A stretch of 64,000 nt of DNA, taken from sequence record OZ346228.1; one strand, given 5' to 3'. The translations under genes were made by a program, and so were the position numbers. Each line of letters begins with the position of its first letter. Positions within the stretch are counted from its first letter, which is position 1. The DNA is from a phage. Shown piece by piece: positions 10,400 through 62,237 of the stretch. Below the pieces are notes generated by a model. The model had not been told where the DNA came from, searched no databases, and worked only from the letters and a program-made list of their open reading frames with translations.

Positions 10400-10825
10400 A
10401 TGATCTATGAAATGCCAAAACTGATTCGTGACGATGCCCAAAACGCCCACACCTTTATCATGGGCAAGCGCATGGATATTATTTGTCATAAAGATTTCTG
10501 GGAAGGTAGTTACTTCACAGAATATTTTGGTAAACTGGATAATGGTCTGCTGATCCAGTTCTACACCGATGCGGAAAACAATATCTGCTGGGAGTTCGAA
10601 ACTGAAGATATCCATAAACTTTTCACCTTCCTAGGTATTAAGGTTGAGGCCAAGTTTGAAGAAGGCGAGTGCGACGATTGTGGATTCTACGAGGTAACAG
10701 ATTTCTATCTCCCAAGTGGTGAGAACCTTTACTATGAAAGCCACTTCGGCAACTCAAATATGCCACAAGGTTGGGATGAGTTTTTTGAAATTGCGGAAGA
10801 GGAGCTGACATACCGTGATTATTGA
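10400..10825 (+). CDS. hypothetical protein, coupled to macro-domain gene
   Basis: RBS CCGGAG; stop overlaps GTG start of next ORF. Confidence 0.55.
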   Translation: MIYEMPKLIRDDAQNAHTFIMGKRMDIICHKDFWEGSYFTEYFGKLDNGLLIQFYTDAENNICWEFETEDIHKLFTFLGIKVEAKFEEGECDDCGFYEVTDFYLPSGENLYYESHFGNSNMPQGWDEFFEIAEEELTYRDY

Positions 10826-11273
10826 TACTGTAGCGGGAGATTTAATCTCCCTTTTTAAGAGCGGTGCTGGTCACCTGATCCACGGTTGTAACTGCTTTCA
10901 TACAATGGGTGCAGGCATAGCGAAAGATATTGCCCGTGAGTTCCCTCAAGCACTGGCAGCCGACAAAGAGACTGCCTATGGTAATCTGGACAAGCTGGGT
11001 ATGTTTTCTTGTTGGGAGCATTTTGCCAAGAACAGGGTCGTATATGGAATCAACCTGTATACCCAGTTCTACCCAGGGCCCAATGCTGAATACTTCTCAA
11101 TAATGAAAGGTTTTGAGCGAGTCAACGAGGTATTCAAAGGTGTGTCATTGCCGTTCTACATTCCTAAAATTGGATGCGGTATTGGCGGTCTAAAGTGGGA
11201 ACATGTAGAAGATGTAATTAATCTTGCAACCACAGATATTGATGTGGTTGTAGTAGAGTACAAAAAGTGTTGA
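10815..11273 (+). CDS. macro-domain protein (ADP-ribose binding/hydrolase family)
   Basis: GDLISLF..HLIHGCNCFHTMGAGIAKDI parallels macro motifs GDIT..NAAN..GGGVDGAI; later IPKIGCGIGGL. Confidence 0.6.
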   Translation: MIIDTVAGDLISLFKSGAGHLIHGCNCFHTMGAGIAKDIAREFPQALAADKETAYGNLDKLGMFSCWEHFAKNRVVYGINLYTQFYPGPNAEYFSIMKGFERVNEVFKGVSLPFYIPKIGCGIGGLKWEHVEDVINLATTDIDVVVVEYKKC

Positions 11274-21984: not shown

Positions 21985-22128
21985 TAATGATAATGGTTCT
22001 CACAATGATAGGTATTCTCATTCCCCCACACAAAATAGATTGCAAATGTTGTGCCACTATGTGAACGGCCTCACCTATTAATTTGCCTCACTGCCTCGAT
22101 ATTTGAGAATTATCATAAGAATGAGAAG
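21985..22128. promoter_or_regulatory. Further copies of the Fur-box-like motif inside the 2.2-kb non-coding region
   Basis: AATGATAATGGTTCTCACAATGATAGGTATTCTCATT and inverted GAGAATTATCATAAGAATGAGAAG. Confidence 0.3.
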
Positions 22129-23125
22129 TATTCCCATTTCGTCCGCCTGGCAGCACTCCAGTCGCTACGGCTCAGAACAGGGCAGAATTGTGTCCATTCA
22201 GATATTTCTGTCTGGCTCTTCAGGTCTGTGTGGGAAAAGTCCACCTCTCTGGCGGGGCATGGGGTCATGACGGGAAAATTGCAGGTCAATTAAAAAATTT
22301 ACGTGGTGTATGAAGCGCTCTTCAGGTAAGGCATGTATTATGGGATGAAACCCTCTTCAGGCAATGATATTTGTGGGTGTGATATTTGCTGGAAAGCCAG
22401 ATATGACGGGACTCCCGGCGGGGCAGGGGTAGTACAGACAGGGGAAATATGGAGGATGTGGTTAGGTGAATTGATCAGACAGGTAGAGTATGGAATATGT
22501 TACAGGTATGTTAAATAGGGCGGCTGAATATCTGTAGGATTTGTGTGTAAAATCAAAGACTTAAGTGGTGTTGTGGTATTTTCTATAAATAATTCAAGTT
22601 TAATAGGTAATATTTGTCTCTATTCGCTTTGTGTGGTAAACAGATTCAGATGAGATTGGTTTACAAGCGTATACATAATATACAAATTAAAGATACAAGA
22701 AACCCCCCTCCCCCTTCGGCTACCATTCACCTTTTCCTCTGACTGGTACTTAAACACTTATTCAGACTCTTCAGGTTATCACCCATATATCATATGGCAG
22801 TGACTGGTGTCCTCCGGCCCCTCTTTCGTCACCCGTCCGCTTCGCCATGCTAATGCCATAGCCAATGGTTCGGTTGTTCACCCTGTTCACTCAGGTGTAT
22901 CTCCATACCCCTTCAAAACGAAGAGAACAGAAAACCCGAATTACTCGGTAAAAGAAAAGAGAAGAACTTAATTTTATCAGGATAGGCAAGAATGTCAAGG
23001 CATGACTGCTCACTAAACAAGCAAACAGTCATGTGTGGGAGGTAAGTGATTGTGGTGGTAGGAAATTTAGTTGAAAGATGTGTTATAGGTGCTTCCAGCA
23101 CTTTAGCCGGGCAGCTAATTGTGTG

Positions 23126-23341
23126 TCAGTCCAGCGGTTCATCCTCTACTTCACTGAAATCAATGTTCATGGTCTCTTCCCAACCATCGATCTCAGCACA
23201 AGAGTGGAGTTCTTTAGGGTTTACTCCTAAAGCCTCAGCAACAGAGTCTATATTTAACACCTCTGGCAGGTATGATTCATCAAATTCAAGGTAAATCAGG
23301 CCACGAGTGTTGTCAGCTCCACCAAATATTTCTATCTTCAT
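23126..23341 (-). CDS. hypothetical acidic protein
   Basis: RBS GAGGAG; last gene of leftward array. Confidence 0.5.
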   Translation of the reverse strand: MKIEIFGGADNTRGLIYLEFDESYLPEVLNIDSVAEALGVNPKELHSCAEIDGWEETMNIDFSEVEDEPLD

Positions 23342-23462
23342 AAAATCTCCTCTGGAAATGAGAGTGTGAACAGGGTTTTATACGTCCCAATGCACAGGAA
23401 TTATGCACGTTTTCCTCTTCAGGCCATGCTTTAGCATGAGGAACCTGTGTGGGCTCGGTGCT

Positions 23463-23675
23463 TCATAGTCTACCACCTCTGAACTCTTCGTGCTCAGGCA
23501 TAATAGAGAACCAGATATCTACGATGTCCTCCCACGTCAGGTCATCAGCCTCAGGATCTGTCTGGGACGAAGATGAAGAGTCCTCAGAATCTAAGTTTTC
23601 CTCTTTAACTGGCTCATCCAAGGGACATATGGTCACTCCTTCGGATGTCTCTTCAGATGCATGTGTGTTGATCAT
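23463..23675 (-). CDS. hypothetical acidic protein
   Basis: D/E/S-rich ORF. Confidence 0.5.
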   Translation of the reverse strand: MINTHASEETSEGVTICPLDEPVKEENLDSEDSSSSSQTDPEADDLTWEDIVDIWFSIMPEHEEFRGGRL

Positions 23676-24035
23676 GTTCCACCCGTGAGTATTCCGGCAA
23701 CAGCTGCTATGGACGTAATGATCATCAGGATCACCACTAAAACTTCGGACAATGTTCTCATTGTGTACTCCATATTCTACAAACTATGTGTGGATACTAT
23801 CACTGGATCGGTAATGTGTCAACAGAAACGCCGCGAGGGTTTGGTTAAAATCCGAGCGTATGGTGATTTGGGTCAAAACGGACGTGCGTTCTCGCTACGC
23901 TCGAAAGAGAGATTTGTTTGTAGGAAGCTCTTAAACGCTCTGTAATGAGATTATCTGTCCAAGGTATGCAATCGTGCACCAGATAAAGAAAAGGACGCCA
24001 CAGAGCGTCCTAGGTGTCTTAAATTTGATATTTTG

Positions 24036-24347
24036 CTATACCCATGAGGGCTTATCAAGGTTGGAGTAGCTGAAAGGTGTCAAAAGGTGACTGTCAAAAT
24101 CTCTCAAACTATCTAAATCTTTTTCCTCGTCCTGACACCATCTGTGCCTACATTTATTGTTGTAGTGCATAGAATGCATAGCGTTCTGCAACTTAACAGG
24201 TACAAGTGATTCAGGAGTAGATAGTATTGTTGGGTATGCCAGAATCACCTCAAACAGTGGAAACACATCGAAACTAAAGTCTACCTCTGCAGAGGTTGAT
24301 GGCATATAGGAGTATTTAGCCGCCTTTGTAGACATAATCCACCTCAC
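24036..24347 (-). CDS. hypothetical protein
   Basis: Co-oriented ORF; 4-nt overlap with upstream gene. Confidence 0.45.
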   Translation of the reverse strand: MRWIMSTKAAKYSYMPSTSAEVDFSFDVFPLFEVILAYPTILSTPESLVPVKLQNAMHSMHYNNKCRHRWCQDEEKDLDSLRDFDSHLLTPFSYSNLDKPSWV

Positions 24348-24670
24348 ACAGGTTTGATAATACCTTTACCGAATAATTCTTCGTATCTAATCTTATCCGG
24401 ATCCCACTCTTGGATAATTTCGAAGACAATATCCAACCCAGGGATAATCACTTCTCCAGTGTCAAGTTTGGCAAGAACAAAACCAGAAGGCTGAATGGTT
24501 TCCCAGTTGCGCCGATTGGAATAGAAGACCTCGAAAATATCGCCGACCTTTATCTGTTGATCAAGATGTTCAAGATTCTCTTTCATATAGACGCAGCGGA
24601 TTTTTCGTGCAGGCCATAGACCACCTGCATCACGTTCATTTAGCTCTTTTACAGTAATCGGTATACCCAT
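24344..24670 (-). CDS. hypothetical protein
   Basis: RBS GAAGGAG; follows terminator hairpin. Confidence 0.5.
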   Translation of the reverse strand: MGIPITVKELNERDAGGLWPARKIRCVYMKENLEHLDQQIKVGDIFEVFYSNRRNWETIQPSGFVLAKLDTGEVIIPGLDIVFEIIQEWDPDKIRYEELFGKGIIKPV

Positions 24671-56076: not shown

Positions 56077-57360
56077 TCATTCAAGCACCTCCCAAGTGTC
56101 TGGGTTAACATTTCGGACGCAGATACCGACAGGGAATTGGTAATTGTTGTCTTCTGTCCTTGCTTGGTATTTGAAGGTGACAAACTTGCCGATCATTTCC
56201 TGCATCCTGTCATAGCTACGCTCCTCGTGCGTGCCTTTCATCTTCATTTTAACAACAACACCTTCCTTGTCAACACAGATAAGAACACCTTCATCATTCT
56301 TATCTTTCTCAACGTCAATAACTTTCACCTCTGCGTCGTTGAACTTTTTCCATTTCAATGCTTCAGATGTTCGCTGACCATACTCATATTTACCGCAGAA
56401 ATTACGCATGATAGTACCTTCATATCCTTCGGACATGAATATACCAACAGATTCTTCGCAATGATCAACTGTGTACGCAAGCTCTGCGTCAACAACCTTG
56501 ATATGATCAAGCATCAGAGTGGTAACGGTATCCTCTGCATCCATAAGATCCTTGCAGCGTCCAGACTCTGTTTCTGGATCCCACCACACCTTGTCGCTAG
56601 GAATATCAAAAATGTGATACTCCAGATCGTAGCTACAGTATCCACCGTAACGCAAATCATCACGAACAGGCTCAACATCGACAGGAATATCTACCTTGTT
56701 GAAGTTTTTGTATGTTGATAAGCCTGCCTTAATTGCTGCATGACGGCGTTTTTTATCTGCCTCATAGTCTTTATCGATCTCGGCCTGAATCTCTTCCTGT
56801 GTGCGCCACCGTTTAGCAAGAGACACTATTTTCTGCAAAGGAAGACCATGAATGTATAGTTCCCCATCAAGTTGTTTAATCCCAGTGGTAGAATGGAAAG
56901 AACGAAGTTGCTCTAAAAGCTTTCCTTGAATAGGGTAGGACTTATTACCACGGGAAATAAATTTAGGCTCACCATTTTGGAAAACAACAAGCAGACGAAG
57001 GCCATCTAACTTACGCAAGATCCAGCAAGGTAATTTAAGTGCCTTGCCACGCTTCAGGTAGTCATGCACCAGCATAGGTAAAAGATCAACACCCTGCTCG
57101 CAATCTTCCATGTTTTCAACATACCCCAGACGGACTTGTTTTTCCCACTTGCTGATAGCCTCAAGCTCGGCCTGTTGCTCAGCTGTAGTCTCGTTGGCAC
57201 GACCTACGTTTTTAGGTGTACATACCGTCTCTTTGTACTGCAATTTACCGTCAAGCTTGCCAAACTCTACGATAACCTTTTCGCCATCAGTGAATACTTT
57301 CCACTGTTGGTAGCTGCCATCTTTGTTCAGTGCGTACAGTGTTGTTTTGATTTGATGCAT
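56077..57360 (-). CDS. ATP-dependent DNA ligase
   Basis: Adenylation motif I RKLDGLR (KxDGxR); 427 aa. Confidence 0.8.
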   Translation of the reverse strand: MHQIKTTLYALNKDGSYQQWKVFTDGEKVIVEFGKLDGKLQYKETVCTPKNVGRANETTAEQQAELEAISKWEKQVRLGYVENMEDCEQGVDLLPMLVHDYLKRGKALKLPCWILRKLDGLRLLVVFQNGEPKFISRGNKSYPIQGKLLEQLRSFHSTTGIKQLDGELYIHGLPLQKIVSLAKRWRTQEEIQAEIDKDYEADKKRRHAAIKAGLSTYKNFNKVDIPVDVEPVRDDLRYGGYCSYDLEYHIFDIPSDKVWWDPETESGRCKDLMDAEDTVTTLMLDHIKVVDAELAYTVDHCEESVGIFMSEGYEGTIMRNFCGKYEYGQRTSEALKWKKFNDAEVKVIDVEKDKNDEGVLICVDKEGVVVKMKMKGTHEERSYDRMQEMIGKFVTFKYQARTEDNNYQFPVGICVRNVNPDTWEVLE

Positions 57361-57924: not shown

Positions 57925-57986
57925 AACTAACTACCTCACTGCATACTTTCCATAATAAGTAAAGCCGGGTAATCCCGGCTATGTTG

Positions 57987-58700
57987 TTAAATATACTCTG
58001 TTACATCCTTGAAGCTCGAAGGCTTCATAATCTTACCTTTACTGTCAAGGAATATAATAACTTTATTACCGTTGTAGAACTCCTCTTTAGCAACGAAACC
58101 TTCGTAGCGACCACCAAAACGACGCTCAAGATCTTCAATCTCTAACTCTATGAGCAATTCAGTAGACATATCTGCACTGGCACCGTGAGAATATCGTAGA
58201 TGGTTGATCCGTGCAAACTTGCTGTCATTAGATTTGAGAACCTTCCGCATCATCCCACACACATCGCCGCGAAGCTGGAACAGCAAAGCTGTTGACAACT
58301 CCGCTAAGCGGTAAGCTGACGCTCTTTGCTTGGATGTGTTTTTCGCAGCGATCAGTGTATCATAGAACTCACCGATCTTGAACTTAAGACCTCGTGGATT
58401 ATCAAACAGGTTTGACCACTTTTCGTGATTATCATTAACAAGATAAGCGGCATAACTTGTGACAACGTGAAGATCGCAGGCCTCTTTTAGCAGGTGATCT
58501 CCACCATCACCTTTCTCCAGCTCTTCCAAAACCTCATTGAACTCTTCCTCAATGAAGCTAAGCTGTAATTCGAATGGTGTGTATGATTTTTTCACTTTAG
58601 CTGCCACACGGTTCCAGTTTTCCACCCAGTTGGCAGACCAAAGGTAGTTTTCAGGCTGAGACAGTTTTTCCAGGTTGTCGATCAGTTTAGTATTCAGCAT
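57987..58700 (-). CDS. hypothetical protein (possible MazG-like segment)
   Basis: IEEEFNEVLEELEKG..EACDLHVV weakly MazG-like. Confidence 0.5.
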   Translation of the reverse strand: MLNTKLIDNLEKLSQPENYLWSANWVENWNRVAAKVKKSYTPFELQLSFIEEEFNEVLEELEKGDGGDHLLKEACDLHVVTSYAAYLVNDNHEKWSNLFDNPRGLKFKIGEFYDTLIAAKNTSKQRASAYRLAELSTALLFQLRGDVCGMMRKVLKSNDSKFARINHLRYSHGASADMSTELLIELEIEDLERRFGGRYEGFVAKEEFYNGNKVIIFLDSKGKIMKPSSFKDVTEYI

Positions 58701-58713
58701 TAAAGGTCTCCTT

Positions 58714-59475
58714 TTAAAGTTCCATAAAGTTTTCTACAGTTTCAATAAATGCTTTATCAGAGAAAGCGTCAACAGCACCGTTAAACCATACAGGGATCCC
58801 GCGATCCTCATATTGATAAAGGTCGCTACGTGAAATGCCACTCCCATCTGCACTCTGCGAGTCATACTTGTTTACAATCAGCAGTTTTGTGCCTTTACAA
58901 GTAGCAGGAAACAATTCCCAGTTAAAATTAATAACTGTGTTAGAACAACCTACTAGGATCACCATATCATTGCTTGTGAGAGATGTCAACAGGTCATACA
59001 TGTCTGTATACTTAGGAGCAACCTCACCGAAGAACACTACATTGGGCTTAACCCAGGTATACTTGCCTGTATCTACCTCCGTGTATCCGATATTTTTAAT
59101 TACATCATTACCTTCAGCATCTTCGTAGGTGATTTCAGGCAAATACCCGTGGACATGTAAAATATCTTCATGTTTTACACCAGCACGCTCCAGCAAATCA
59201 TCTACATTGGTGGTAAGGTTGATCACACGACCAGACCAGCGGGAATACCACTCAGCGATCCGAAGATGTGCAAGGTTAGGATCAACACTGCCCAGAGCTA
59301 CACGACGTGCATTGTAAAAGTCATGCACCTTATAGTAGTTCTTGGCAAAGGTGTGGATGTTGCACACCTCATCGATGCTGAAATTCTCCCACATTGCAGT
59401 GCTACCAGATCGGAAAGTGGGAATACCAGATTCAGCGCTCAAACCAGCACCGGAGATAATAATCAGTCGTCGCAT
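58714..59475 (-). CDS. Sir2-family NAD-dependent protein (no zinc ribbon)
   Basis: ISGAGLSAESGIPTFRS, LTTNVDDLLERAG..HVHG, VVFFGE; no CxxC..CxxC pairs in small-domain region. Confidence 0.75.
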   Translation of the reverse strand: MRRLIIISGAGLSAESGIPTFRSGSTAMWENFSIDEVCNIHTFAKNYYKVHDFYNARRVALGSVDPNLAHLRIAEWYSRWSGRVINLTTNVDDLLERAGVKHEDILHVHGYLPEITYEDAEGNDVIKNIGYTEVDTGKYTWVKPNVVFFGEVAPKYTDMYDLLTSLTSNDMVILVGCSNTVINFNWELFPATCKGTKLLIVNKYDSQSADGSGISRSDLYQYEDRGIPVWFNGAVDAFSDKAFIETVENFMEL

Positions 59476-59483
59476 AAGTGTCC

Positions 59484-59834
59484 TCAGTAGATGTTTTGTT
59501 TAATCTCTATTCCAAACTTCTTGAATGAGTCAGCAGCAAGCATAAATTTACGAGCTGCCGATGGATTAGAAGTATGCACGAAAATAATCACGTTGTCAAT
59601 AAGTGGTGGCTTTCCGAATACAAGTTTCTCCTCTAGCGCAGAGAAGCAGTCGTACCCTTCAAGCACTTCACCTAGATCATTGTCAAAATACCACTCAGAT
59701 ACGCGTCTGTAGAGCTTTCTCTTATCATTAAGAAAATCCATAAACTCAGAAGAATTCTTTAGCCACAGAGCGTCTGGGAGTCCATAATCTGACGGATCTC
59801 TAAAATCATCAAGCCACACAATCCACTTCTTCAT
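59484..59834 (-). CDS. hypothetical protein
   Basis: 4-nt overlap with RNA ligase gene. Confidence 0.5.
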   Translation of the reverse strand: MKKWIVWLDDFRDPSDYGLPDALWLKNSSEFMDFLNDKRKLYRRVSEWYFDNDLGEVLEGYDCFSALEEKLVFGKPPLIDNVIIFVHTSNPSAARKFMLAADSFKKFGIEIKQNIY

Positions 59835-60766
59835 TGCATATAGTCCTCGTTGTGGAAATAGTAGTCCAGTATCTCACGACGCTCCTGCTCTAATAAGCAA
59901 TTCCACACATCTTCTGTATAGTTGCTACGAATAAATTTTACCATACCGTAAAACTCTTCGTCAACACGTTTAAAGATATCATCATCCCAAATCTTCCAAG
60001 CTTTACCCCTCATTACTGCCTTCCGTGCCAGATAGTATGGAGACTTGATCTTCAGCTGCAGATCATAAGGGTAGTAAGGCTTACGAATCATATACCCTTC
60101 ACCTCTTGTTTCTGCAGCTAATTCTTTTGCATAGCTGAACGGAATTTCACGCACAGTGTTAGGACGTTTTGCACCAAGGTATTTGGCAATCCCATCTAAA
60201 GCTGCTTCTGGTAGCATTATTCCAGAATCATTATATCTGCAACCTATCAAATATGCGCCATGGTCTTCTTGAACAATATGCGGATCTGAAGGGTGACAAA
60301 TTTCAAACATGAATGTCATGTTTTCATTGCCCATAACCTTCTTGATAAGATCTAAATTACCACATTGCTCTTGGATGGTTTCCTTTGCAAGGTTACAATA
60401 TGGAGAATCAAGAGACCCGGTTGTTGAGAACAATAGGTCACCTTTATGAGATGATACCACACCAAGGAATCCGTTCTTTTTCTCTACCGCAGTCACAAGC
60501 TTATTGTCAGGCAGGTTGGTGGAGTTTTCTCCCAAGTTAAACACTTTTGTGAAGGGCCATGCCACAACATTTCCTTCATTACCTACAACAATGCCTCGGC
60601 ACTCCAGTAAACGAGGGGACAAATGCCATAAATTGTTGTAAAATACTTTTCTAGCATATTTATAGATCTTTAACCCGAGATCTGGGTAATACCTACTGGT
60701 TACAAGACCTTTGTCAACTAGGTCGTCTGCATTAAAATACTTCATTATATGTTCCTCATTTGTCAT
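59831..60766 (-). CDS. RNA ligase, T4 Rnl1-like
   Basis: LECRGIVV, KVFNLGEN, motif I EKKNGFLGV, GDLLFSTTGSL parallel T4 RnlA LECRGIMF, KFFNLNEN, TKEDGSL, GDEILFKSKGSI (from memory); start may be ATG at 60745. Confidence 0.75.
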   Translation of the reverse strand: MTNEEHIMKYFNADDLVDKGLVTSRYYPDLGLKIYKYARKVFYNNLWHLSPRLLECRGIVVGNEGNVVAWPFTKVFNLGENSTNLPDNKLVTAVEKKNGFLGVVSSHKGDLLFSTTGSLDSPYCNLAKETIQEQCGNLDLIKKVMGNENMTFMFEICHPSDPHIVQEDHGAYLIGCRYNDSGIMLPEAALDGIAKYLGAKRPNTVREIPFSYAKELAAETRGEGYMIRKPYYPYDLQLKIKSPYYLARKAVMRGKAWKIWDDDIFKRVDEEFYGMVKFIRSNYTEDVWNCLLEQERREILDYYFHNEDYMQ

Positions 60767-60809: not shown

Positions 60810-60838
60810 TTGAAATTAACAAAACAGTTAGGTATACT
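60810..60838 (+). promoter_or_regulatory. sigma70-like promoter in divergent region
   Basis: TTGAAA, 17-nt spacer, TATACT. Confidence 0.45.
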
Positions 60839-60866
60839 ACCGTTGAAATTAAAACGGAGGGTCGCT

Positions 60867-61277
60867 ATGTCTAAAATGCTATATATCGTGCGTGGTCTAC
60901 CAGGGTCTGGCAAATCAACACTGGCAAATGAGCTATCTTTAGAGGGTCTGTATCCACATTTTGAGAACGACATGTTCTGGTATGACGATGACGGCAATTA
61001 CAACTGGGATGCAAGTAAAGTAACACTCGCAGCAAAATGGTGCAAAGATAACGTAGAAGATATGATGCGTATGGGATACGACCGTATCGTGGTAAGTAAT
61101 ACGTTTACAAAAGAAAAACATGTGCAGGAATATGTTGACATGGCAATCACTCACGGGTATAGTTATACCGTGATCGTGGTTGAAAACCGCCACGGTAATA
61201 AAAGCATTCATGATGTTCCAGACAAGGTTGTGGATCGTATGGAACGCCAGCTTAAAAACTGCATTAAACTTAAATGA
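60867..61277 (+). CDS. P-loop polynucleotide kinase-like protein
   Basis: RBS ACGGAGG; Walker A VRGLPGSGKSTLA; divergent from RNA ligase. Confidence 0.6.
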   Translation: MSKMLYIVRGLPGSGKSTLANELSLEGLYPHFENDMFWYDDDGNYNWDASKVTLAAKWCKDNVEDMMRMGYDRIVVSNTFTKEKHVQEYVDMAITHGYSYTVIVVENRHGNKSIHDVPDKVVDRMERQLKNCIKLK

Positions 61278-61284
61278 GGAATGT

Positions 61285-61839
61285 ATGAAATACTTTGTAA
61301 CAAGCGACACACACTTTCTCCACCAGCGGGTCATGGAGTTTGATTCATGTCAAAAACACAGATCTCAGTATGATCACAATCTTGACAGTATGAATGCAGG
61401 AATCATCGCCGAGTGGAACTCTGTTGTGTCACCTGCAGACACTGTGTTCCACTTGGGAGATATTGCGTGCACTAATGATAAGAATATCAACAACTTACTT
61501 CCAGATATTCTAAATATGTTGAACGGACATATTATTCTTGTTCGTGGCAACCATGACACAAGGACGACTGTCAGAATTATGAAAGAGTTCGGTCATGAGG
61601 TTGTAGATTATTACGAGCTTCGCCACAACAAGAATTTGATCTGTATGAGCCATTACCAGTTTGCAAAGTGGAACAGAAAGCCTCACGGATCAGTCCAACT
61701 GTTCGGTCATGCTCACGGAACCACACAACAGTTGTTTGGCAGGCAGCTTGATGTCGGTTGGGATGTGTGGGGGAGACTCTTACCATTAGAAGAGGCATAC
61801 CGTATTGCAATGAGTTTTGATATTGACAGCAGGGAGTAA
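61285..61839 (+). CDS. calcineurin-like metallophosphoesterase
   Basis: RBS TGAGGA; motifs SDTHFLH, HLGDIA, VRGNHD. Confidence 0.7.
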   Translation: MKYFVTSDTHFLHQRVMEFDSCQKHRSQYDHNLDSMNAGIIAEWNSVVSPADTVFHLGDIACTNDKNINNLLPDILNMLNGHIILVRGNHDTRTTVRIMKEFGHEVVDYYELRHNKNLICMSHYQFAKWNRKPHGSVQLFGHAHGTTQQLFGRQLDVGWDVWGRLLPLEEAYRIAMSFDIDSRE

Positions 61840-61886: not shown

Positions 61887-62237
61887 ATGAAAGATGGGGA
61901 TAAGCTGCTATATCTTAAAGTCCCCCTTGAAATACTATCTATGTCAAAAGTTTTGAATGACACAACTGGGGAGGTTGTTGTTCTTGACTTGTATGACAAG
62001 ATCGTATACTGCTACCTGCACAACTGGTATAAGCTTGGAGGAAATTCACGCTTCACACCAAGCACAAGGAAAATTGCAGCAGATGTTGGGATAAAGAAAA
62101 CAAAAGCAGCAGCGTGCGTTAAAACTTTAGAATGTGCAGGAGTGGTTGAAACATCCACACAAGGGAGAGGTAAAAGATGCACATTTTCCAAAGTTTTGCC
62201 ACCAGAAGAAGTTATTCGGATGTCAACAACTGGTTAG
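61887..62237 (+). CDS. putative DNA-binding (HTH-like) protein
   Basis: RBS AAGGAG; STRKIAADVGIKKTKAAACVKTLECAGVV resembles an HTH; followed by palindrome array. Confidence 0.5.
   Translation: MKDGDKLLYLKVPLEILSMSKVLNDTTGEVVVLDLYDKIVYCYLHNWYKLGGNSRFTPSTRKIAADVGIKKTKAAACVKTLECAGVVETSTQGRGKRCTFSKVLPPEEVIRMSTTG

Follow-up and report, generated by a model that had tools for sequence, protein, structure and literature searches.

Among the phage-encoded sirtuins described so far, the closest to the one considered here belong to a clade delineated by Iyer, Burroughs, Anantharaman and Aravind (2022; PMC9503650, section 3.7.3). Its neighbourhood, 'prototyped by Escherichia phage V5', comprises a sirtuin, a T4-like tRNA ligase, a cyclic-phosphate processing receiver-like protein (cREC), a nucleotide kinase, a pyrophosphatase of the MazG superfamily and a calcineurin-like phosphoesterase, and has no adjacent macro domain. 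For this clade, which is explicitly described as not macro-coupled, a role like that of Tpt1/KptA was predicted (Iyer et al., 2022), the prediction for cREC having been made earlier (PMC7824862). The absence of the zinc site was likewise reported before, for the sirtuins of phages KVP40 and phiSt2 (Skliros et al., 2016; PMC5107563). The present analysis concerns a Sir2-family gene found in a stretch of phage DNA of 64,000 nucleotides (nt; sequence record OZ346228.1), hereafter called the window, which contains all the members of the neighbourhood just listed. The gene lies as follows.

58714..59475, minus strand: Sir2-family (sirtuin) gene, an open reading frame (ORF) of 253 amino acids (aa) with an ATG start

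The gene is already known: it is annotated in more than 100 near-identical genomes, proteins identical to its product were deposited earlier as "Sir2-like", its zinc-free state and its neighbourhood are both in print, and the scan adds little to this. The interest that remains would seem to lie in the biochemistry of the enzyme.

Tentatively, and with a confidence that stays short of even, the product is read here as the sirtuin of an RNA-repair cassette, which would remove 2'-phosphates from RNA in the manner of Tpt1/KptA, as published by Iyer et al. (2022). Host ribonucleases would cut tRNA or mRNA, the phage cassette would heal and seal the resulting ends, and the sirtuin would catalyse one step, the NAD+-dependent removal of the RNA 2'-phosphate. 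The enzyme itself would be a catalytically competent, single-domain, NAD+-dependent sirtuin of the phage-specific clade PHROG 2162 whose core derives from class III sirtuins (CobB/SIRT5-like). The family, the fold, the conservation of catalytic residues, the lack of zinc ligands, the anatomy of the operon and the recurrence of its neighbourhood are shown below; we infer the substrate and every chemical step of this scheme.

The RNA-repair setting is found in the genes around Sir2. On the minus strand, an RNA ligase, cREC, Sir2 and a pyrophosphatase of 237 aa follow each other head to tail, then comes a GC-rich hairpin; a kinase and a phosphoesterase are encoded divergently.

59831..60766, minus strand: T4 Rnl1-type RNA ligase (Pfam RNA_lig_T4_1, E=1e-14; PHROG 562)
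59484..59834, minus strand: cREC, 116 aa (Pfam PF20274, E=9.1e-14; PHROG 1479)
57987..58700, minus strand: all-alpha NTP pyrophosphohydrolase of the MazG / dimeric dUTPase superfamily, a protein of 237 aa encoded downstream of Sir2 after a gap of 13 nt
57963..57980, minus strand: GC-rich hairpin, terminator-like and bidirectional, 7-bp stem with 6 GC pairs (consensus match only)
60810..61277, plus strand, divergent: P-loop polynucleotide-kinase-like protein, kinase domain only (Pfam AAA_33, E=1e-10)
61285..61839, plus strand: calcineurin-like metallophosphoesterase (Pfam Metallophos_2, E=1.2e-6; Metallophos, E=3.9e-6)
56077..57360, minus strand: ATP-dependent DNA ligase (Pfam DNA_ligase_A_M and OB_2), downstream of the operon

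The stop codon of the RNA ligase gene overlaps the start of cREC as ATGA, only 8 nt separate cREC from Sir2 directly downstream of it, and Sir2 is preceded by a GAGGA ribosome-binding site. From this anatomy, the Rnl1, cREC, Sir2 and pyrophosphatase genes are predicted to form one tight co-transcribed operon closed by the hairpin. Gene starts differ slightly among relatives: one GenBank relative places that of the RNA ligase 18 nt further in (60748), and relatives of the kinase, named polynucleotide kinase in MZ501054, begin at ~60867. The DNA ligase is co-located with the repair cassette in rV5-like, Mydovirus-like and phi92-like loci. Relatives have a cluster of tRNA genes that begins ~4 kb past the RNA ligase, a position that falls shortly beyond the window; within the window itself, Rfam and tRNA scans found nothing. 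The pyrophosphatase (also locus L084, 1588-2301) goes by 'putative Sir2-like protein' in some GenBank entries, MN850597 (phage isim) among them, yet it has no SIR2 match and its fold is of the dimeric-dUTPase/MazG kind; the label looks like a propagated misannotation.

With regard to the Sir2 gene itself, its product matches the Pfam SIR2 model PF02146 with E=6.9e-28 and 98 bits for a cut-off of 24 (aa 9-181 on model positions 1-178 of 180), and PHROG 2162 'Sir2' over its full length with E=1.5e-108. Such matches are far above chance, and on their strength the protein is beyond doubt a true sirtuin, so that the Sir2 assignment of an earlier preliminary description of this DNA, and the coordinates it gave, are borne out. 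The window is from a Vequintavirus, an rV5-like coliphage: the region is 99.9% identical to genomes of that group (E. coli myophages such as isim, CarlMeissner and nimi), in which the gene is labelled 'NAD-dependent protein SIR2 family deacetylase' or 'sirtuin domain NAD-dependent deacetylase'. Compared with an ortholog that is 89.7% identical, dN/dS is 0.11, and the gene is under purifying selection. This region of an E. coli Vequintavirus is also found, with protein identities of 99-100%, in some 18-25 GenBank records named 'Campylobacter phage' (MG065653, MG065676, MG065661 and others), which suggests that they are mislabelled or contaminated.

The catalytic apparatus can be located in four segments, all on the minus strand.

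59407..59451, minus strand: NAD-binding loop GAGLSAESGIPTFRS, aa 9-23, with G9, A10, G11, S16, F21 and R22 invariant
59302..59319, minus strand: FYNARR, aa 53-58, the class III Y-x-x-R pair (CobB Y92/R95), a hexapeptide identical in CobB
59194..59214, minus strand: TTNVDDL, aa 88-94, the equivalent of TQNID, with Asn90 and Asp92 kept and Gln replaced by Thr89
59146..59151, minus strand: catalytic His109-Gly110, aligned with the HG of HMHG in CobB

Invariance was assessed in an alignment of 52 homologs that share only ~50% identity across lineages. It contains 46 invariant positions, all catalytic residues among them: besides the loop residues listed, these include F53, Y54, R57 and R58 as well as N90, D92, H109, G110, F148, F149, E151 and N202. 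Conservation of GAG, S16, F21, R22, N90, D92, H109, FGE and N202 extends to 150 distant representatives. The NAD-binding loop GAGLSAESGIPTFRS aligns with GAGISAESGIRTFR of CobB, and HG is present in 150 of 151 aligned sequences, the sole exception (P0171) being a fragment of 164 aa. Zinc-containing relatives have TQNVDDL at the third segment and zinc-free phage versions T(T/A/S)N. The preliminary description had held the NAD-binding motifs to be intact (loop, TTNVDDL and HG) and had named disruption of the catalytic His or of the NAD pocket in an alignment as what would refute its reading; both are whole. The structure prediction it had called for gave a confident sirtuin model that superposes on CobB and SIRT5: with the 52 homologs as input, AlphaFold (AF2) reached a pLDDT of 89.5 and a pTM of 0.88, and the top Foldseek matches of the model are CobB (6rxq/1s5p, TM 0.75-0.84), then SIRT5 and Sir2Af1. 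Sequence comparison with the PDB gave E. coli CobB (1s5p, 6rxj) and human SIRT5 as best matches, with E ~1e-21. Judged from these comparisons, the protein is an apparently active NAD-dependent enzyme with a class III-type pocket and is not a CobB ortholog; the NCBIfam CobB models are its top matches, with scores far under the curated cut-offs (122.6 bits versus 243 for NF001753, 104 versus 320 for NF040867).

The family is widespread, being detected by tblastn in 1,012 of 50,697 phage records. Carriers include T5 (T5.102, 57% identity) and T5-like genomes, genomes with a size of 142-150 kb, among them Klebsiella phage Iguana_ER37 and phage ukendt, several jumbo phages, and the KVP40-type Vibrio phage nt-1, the homolog of which is 46% identical to the window protein over aa 3-194. 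When the neighbourhoods of Sir2 were compared in 59 viral loci, three types could be distinguished. Type A, found in rV5-like, Mydovirus-like and other loci with Sir2 identities of 43-56% and rearranged gene order, has Rnl1, the polynucleotide kinase, the metallophosphoesterase, the MazG-like protein and DNA ligase around Sir2, mostly with cREC. Type B is that of T5-like genomes, where Sir2 is followed by a HAD_SAK_2 phosphatase (of the 'Swiss-army-knife RNA repair' type) and then by a pair of DUF7415 paralogs; cREC homologs were not detectable in T5-like genomes by tblastn. The HAD_SAK_2 and DUF7415 arrangement, T5.105-T5.107 in T5 (locus L002, 7142-8481), is common to T5 and ~470 relatives. 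In type C, represented by phi92-like phages and Vibrio phage nt-1, DUF7275/7277 genes lie nearby, and the phi92-like set also has a methyltransferase-like protein, a metallophosphoesterase and, in some loci, AAA_28 (NadR-type kinase-like). The setting of Sir2 in these loci (L035, 4981-5910; L003, 2843-3604; L047, 9704-10246) is a second, uncharacterised association; no DUF7275 homolog was found in the 64-kb window.

Two jumbo phages carry further arrangements (loci L081, 1-2966 and 4962-8500, and L082, 4965-8394). In SHEFM2K the order is Sir2, a Nudt16-like Nudix protein, cREC, a small membrane protein and a PhoH-like ATPase, and in fHe-Yen9-03 Sir2 is followed by a 302-aa fusion of Nudix and cREC and then by PIN-PhoH, with the NAD+ salvage genes NadV and NadM/ADP-ribose pyrophosphatase a few kb upstream of Sir2. 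As these jumbo phages are unrelated, they provide independent evidence, and Sir2, cREC and a nucleotide pyrophosphatase therefore form a recurring trio. The fusion of Nudix and cREC is in keeping with a substrate carrying a pyrophosphate as well as a cyclic phosphate. When the surroundings of distant cREC genes were compared for a displacement of Sir2 by KptA, only 4 loci without Sir2 were recovered; these have an Rnl2-type ligase, MazG or a metallophosphoesterase, and no KptA.

The reaction schemes of sirtuins and Tpt1 are formally parallel, since in both an oxygen nucleophile attacks C1'' of NAD+ and the ribose 2''-OH attacks next. The steps of the Tpt1 reaction are summarised in PMC11417386. 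It can be hypothesized, with considerable reserve and as already put forward by Iyer et al. (2022), that in the trio a sirtuin stands in for Tpt1/KptA as a non-orthologous replacement; the Y-x-x-R pair and Cys38 would be re-used to hold RNA phosphates and the by-product, ADP-ribose cyclic-phosphate, would be destroyed. Cys38 (codon 59362-59364) is found without exception in 120 close homologs, and ~90% of the 150 distant representatives have it too, those with a zinc ribbon among them. The residue is aligned with the CobB acyl-pocket residue Ala76 and constitutes a conserved thiol at the substrate site.

Several observations weigh against an RNA substrate. Sir2 is acidic, with an isoelectric point (pI) of 4.9 (clade median 5.1), which is unusual for an RNA-binding enzyme if only weak evidence, and the fold of the 237-aa 'MazG' partner is closest to dimeric dUTPases, and this protein may serve nucleotide-pool sanitation; the RNA model is weakened on both accounts. 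The T4-type healing route, with kinase and phosphoesterase, need not leave a 2'-phosphate. The activity of cREC is itself a predicted one, and no paper testing any member of the Sir2 clade or cREC was found in the literature. The linkage of Sir2 with the repair cassette is frequent and not obligatory, because in phi92-like genomes the full cassette stands without Sir2, which lies ~32 kb away; in Vibrio phage nt-1, no repair gene is found near Sir2, neither RNA ligase nor cREC adjoining it. Furthermore, as the rV5-, Mydovirus- and phi92-like phages are related, their synteny may be partly inherited rather than selected. Lastly, the residues of the CobB pocket map onto the phage protein as Y92 to Y54, R95 to R57, I131 to V91, H147 to H109, V187 to V146 and F190 to F149; almost all residues of the acyl-lysine pocket thus appear retained, and a protein deacylase would fit equally well. 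Under the CobB numbering used here, which we take to be that of UniProt P75960 (V162 is off by one in the copy relied upon), the residue types match those by which PDB variants are named (A76, Y92, I131 and V187).

This deacylase is the main rival and a possibility to be taken seriously, only a little less probable than the RNA-repair reading. The enzyme would then be a CobB/SIRT5-like lysine deacylase (deacetylase or desuccinylase/demalonylase) acting on host or phage proteins in the course of infection and releasing O-acyl-ADP-ribose, a product that Nudix enzymes are also able to cleave. The sequence and fold matches given above, the rank of the CobB models and the near-complete conservation of the acyl pocket (V91, V146, F149, H109) all speak for it, as does FYNARR, whose Y/R pair is used by class III enzymes for the acidic acyl carboxylate. 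For the Vibrio phage sirtuins, reactivation of acetyl-CoA synthetase (Acs) was proposed by Skliros et al. (2016). On the other hand, a score of 122 bits is low for equivalog cut-offs of 243-320, and the substrate site departs from CobB in ways specific to the clade: Ala76 is replaced by the invariant Cys38, the Gln of TQNID by Thr89 and the Pro of VYP (P221) by Asn183, which is Asn or Asp in the clade. Moreover, the host has its own CobB, and a deacylase would not explain why genes for cREC, RNA ligase and HAD_SAK are found next to Sir2 time and again.

Sirtuins have a zinc ribbon, a CxxC...CxxC segment between the catalytic HG and KPNVVFFGE; in the window protein, which has only 3 Cys (C38, C177 and C193), there is none between these two motifs.

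59050..59145, minus strand: hairpin of the former zinc ribbon, aa 111-142, devoid of Cys, with two beta-strands (110-118 and 124-128) and with IGY and W141 conserved

The lack of Cys pairs in the small domain, noted in the preliminary description, is therefore confirmed (0 Cys in aa 111-142). A search of 1.8 billion representatives at 50% identity was made for relatives, and the 150 best were examined with the query, i.e., 151 sequences. In the segment equivalent to aa 111-142, at least 4 Cys are found in 87 of them, 1-3 in 24 and 0 in 40. Except for one 164-aa fragment, all keep H109, Y54 and N90; R57, D92 and C38 are kept in most and the 'IGY' motif in many. Direct alignment places the CxxC...CxxC of the metagenomic relatives P0145, P0154, P0135 and P0178 in exactly the same hairpin, which in the same alignment has no Cys in the rV5-like, T5, nt-1, fHe-Yen9-03, SHEFM2K and phi92-like proteins. 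A neighbour-joining tree built without the zinc segment gives, as a rough estimate, ~10 changes of zinc state, the query falling within the largest zinc-free group. Because relatives within the clade keep the CxxC...CxxC in this very hairpin, zinc loss is a derived trait, the result of a structural module degenerating several times within a single clade of phage-type sirtuins, and not the marker of an enzyme class. On the small contigs (2-4 kb) of the zinc-containing relatives P0145 and P0174, only ankyrin, DAGK and HNH neighbours are visible, and a search for fusion partners in long Sir2 relatives returned only tandem Sir2 and WG repeats.

The stability of sirtuins normally depends on the zinc ribbon. 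Its loss could accordingly have destabilised the small domain and abolished catalysis, leaving a decaying or structural remnant, and substitutions between close orthologs do cluster in the former hairpin. This is highly improbable in view of the low dN/dS, of the 46 positions, with all catalytic residues, that stay invariant at only ~50% identity, and of the retention of the family in ~1,000 phage genomes. In addition, the AF2 model predicts the hairpin as two beta-strands with a pLDDT of 94-96, and it would be held together by hydrophobic and aromatic residues.

The absence of zinc also bears on a further alternative, namely that the protein is an NAD+ glycohydrolase or NAD-consuming effector like ThsA, DSR or SIR2-HerA, serving host shutdown or the exclusion of competing phages. 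In its favour are the membership of the protein in the Sir2 superfamily, the many NADases among bacterial Sir2 domains without zinc (PMC9503650), and the initial description of the KVP40 homolog as an NAD-hydrolysing protein (quoted in PMC5107563). Such a role is nonetheless unlikely. The protein is a single domain of 253 aa with no sensor or partner domain, and its nearest relatives are deacylase-type class III sirtuins, not defence Sir2 proteins. NAD+ salvage enzymes adjoin Sir2 in several phages (NadV and NadM in fHe-Yen9-03), which is in keeping with the use of NAD+ and not its destruction, and a lytic phage needs its NAD+ and nucleotide pools. No PADLOC model matches the protein at E<=0.01, and the neighbouring genes that were scanned showed none of the domains HerA, TIR, SLOG and pAgo. 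A defence-type Sir2 NADase (ThsA, DSR1/2, SIR2-HerA or SIR2-pAgo) was rejected for want of a PADLOC match and of partner domains in a single-domain protein. As to the suggestion in the preliminary description of an NAD-consuming or ADP-ribosylating effector, NAD-consuming ADP-ribosyl-transfer chemistry is likely, while the effector role is unsupported because no PADLOC defence-system model matches Sir2.

That description had also paired the sirtuin with a macro-domain gene of the same genome, whose presence is confirmed.

10815-11273, plus strand: TARG1/DarG-like stand-alone macro-domain protein (Pfam Macro, E=1e-5; PADLOC DarG, E=1.4e-13; PDB 5m3i, 1.4e-5)

Its match to the NCBIfam DarG model has E=1.7e-12 and is far below the cut-off of that model. 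The protein is a candidate ADP-ribose-removing counter-defence enzyme, e.g., against DarT-type DNA ADP-ribosylation, or a candidate ADP-ribose-1''-phosphate phosphatase; in T4-like genomes (165-170 kb) the family adjoins the vs gene. Class M sirtuins (SirTM) have QG in the place of HG, a small domain that coordinates zinc, and a macro gene that either adjoins theirs within one operon or is fused to it (Rack et al., 2015; PMC4518038). It is accordingly incorrect to take zinc-less sirtuins for the macro-paired ADP-ribosyltransferases. A SirTM-like protein ADP-ribosyltransferase forming a writer/eraser pair with the macro protein could be imagined from the presence of both genes and from the ability of sirtuins to ADP-ribosylate proteins (PMC4518038), and is very improbable here: the phage Sir2 keeps HG and lacks zinc ligands, and the macro gene belongs to another transcription block, at a distance of 47 kb. 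The phage distributions differ as well, with 2,742 records for the macro family against 1,012 for Sir2, and of the 59 viral loci only 1 has the macro gene within 8 kb of Sir2. The pairing is thus not supported, which accords with the clade being called not macro-coupled by Iyer et al. (PMC9503650), and the macro gene is unrelated to the Sir2 operon. Membership of class M was rejected on the grounds of the retained HG, the absence of zinc ligands and the absence of an adjacent macro gene, the flanking genes encoding cREC and the NTP pyrophosphatase.

Elsewhere in the window, a small helix-turn-helix (HTH) protein is encoded directly after the kinase and phosphoesterase genes. Relatives have it annotated as 'putative transcriptional regulator', and the divergent repair genes may be under its control.

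61887-62237, plus strand: small HTH protein (DUF6945/HTH_36)

At ~22000-24500, coding passes from the plus to the minus strand and the sign of the GC skew is reversed. This boundary separates small plus-strand genes from a minus-strand block of nucleotide-metabolism and replication genes that ends in the Sir2 operon. At the matching place, CarlMeissner has ~2.5 kb without annotated genes. No Rfam family or tRNA was found at the boundary. A promoter scan of the window remained at background, with 19 found for 16 expected, and was not used.

Should the RNA-repair reading be true, this would be the first sirtuin to have a nucleic-acid phosphate, and not acyl-lysine, as its physiological substrate; the substrate range of sirtuins would be widened from proteins to RNA, and phages would have recruited Tpt1-like chemistry. 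It would also provide phages with an extra module against defences that cleave tRNA or mRNA, by which the repair of tRNAs cut by host anticodon nucleases would be finished. Since the family covers the model phage T5 and phages of the BASEL collection, knockouts and assays are easy.

Compared with the known systems, the protein shares with CobB and SIRT5 (1s5p, 6rxj, 3riy) the Rossmann core, GAGxS, NxD, the catalytic His and FGE together with FYNARR, and differs from them by the absence of zinc ligands, by TTNVD in place of TQNID, by Cys38 and Asn183, and by a C-terminal insert (aa 203-225) for which the pLDDT is lower. The Sir2/CobB proteins of the schizoT4-like Vibrio phages KVP40 and phiSt2 are of the same phage sirtuin family and also lack the zinc site (PMC5107563), whereas the copy in nt-1 adjoins neither RNA ligase nor cREC and Acs deacetylation was the role proposed by Skliros et al. 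SirTM (Rack et al., 2015) has in common only the sirtuin fold and the use of NAD+, and differs by its QG, its zinc domain and its same-operon macro gene. With Tpt1/KptA, the likeness is a proposed functional analogy only, consisting of a two-step reaction that depends on NAD+, an ADP-ribosylated intermediate, attack by the ribose 2''-OH and an RNA-repair setting, while the folds are unrelated and there is no sequence similarity (SIR2 is the only Pfam match and all fold matches are sirtuins). From the clade of Iyer et al. (2022), that is PHROG 2162, there is no substantive difference, the window protein being a member with the same neighbourhood; to that description, the present analysis adds the zinc-ligand census, the mapping of the CobB pocket, the operon junctions, the unlinked phi92-like arrangement and the dUTPase-like fold of the 'MazG' partner.

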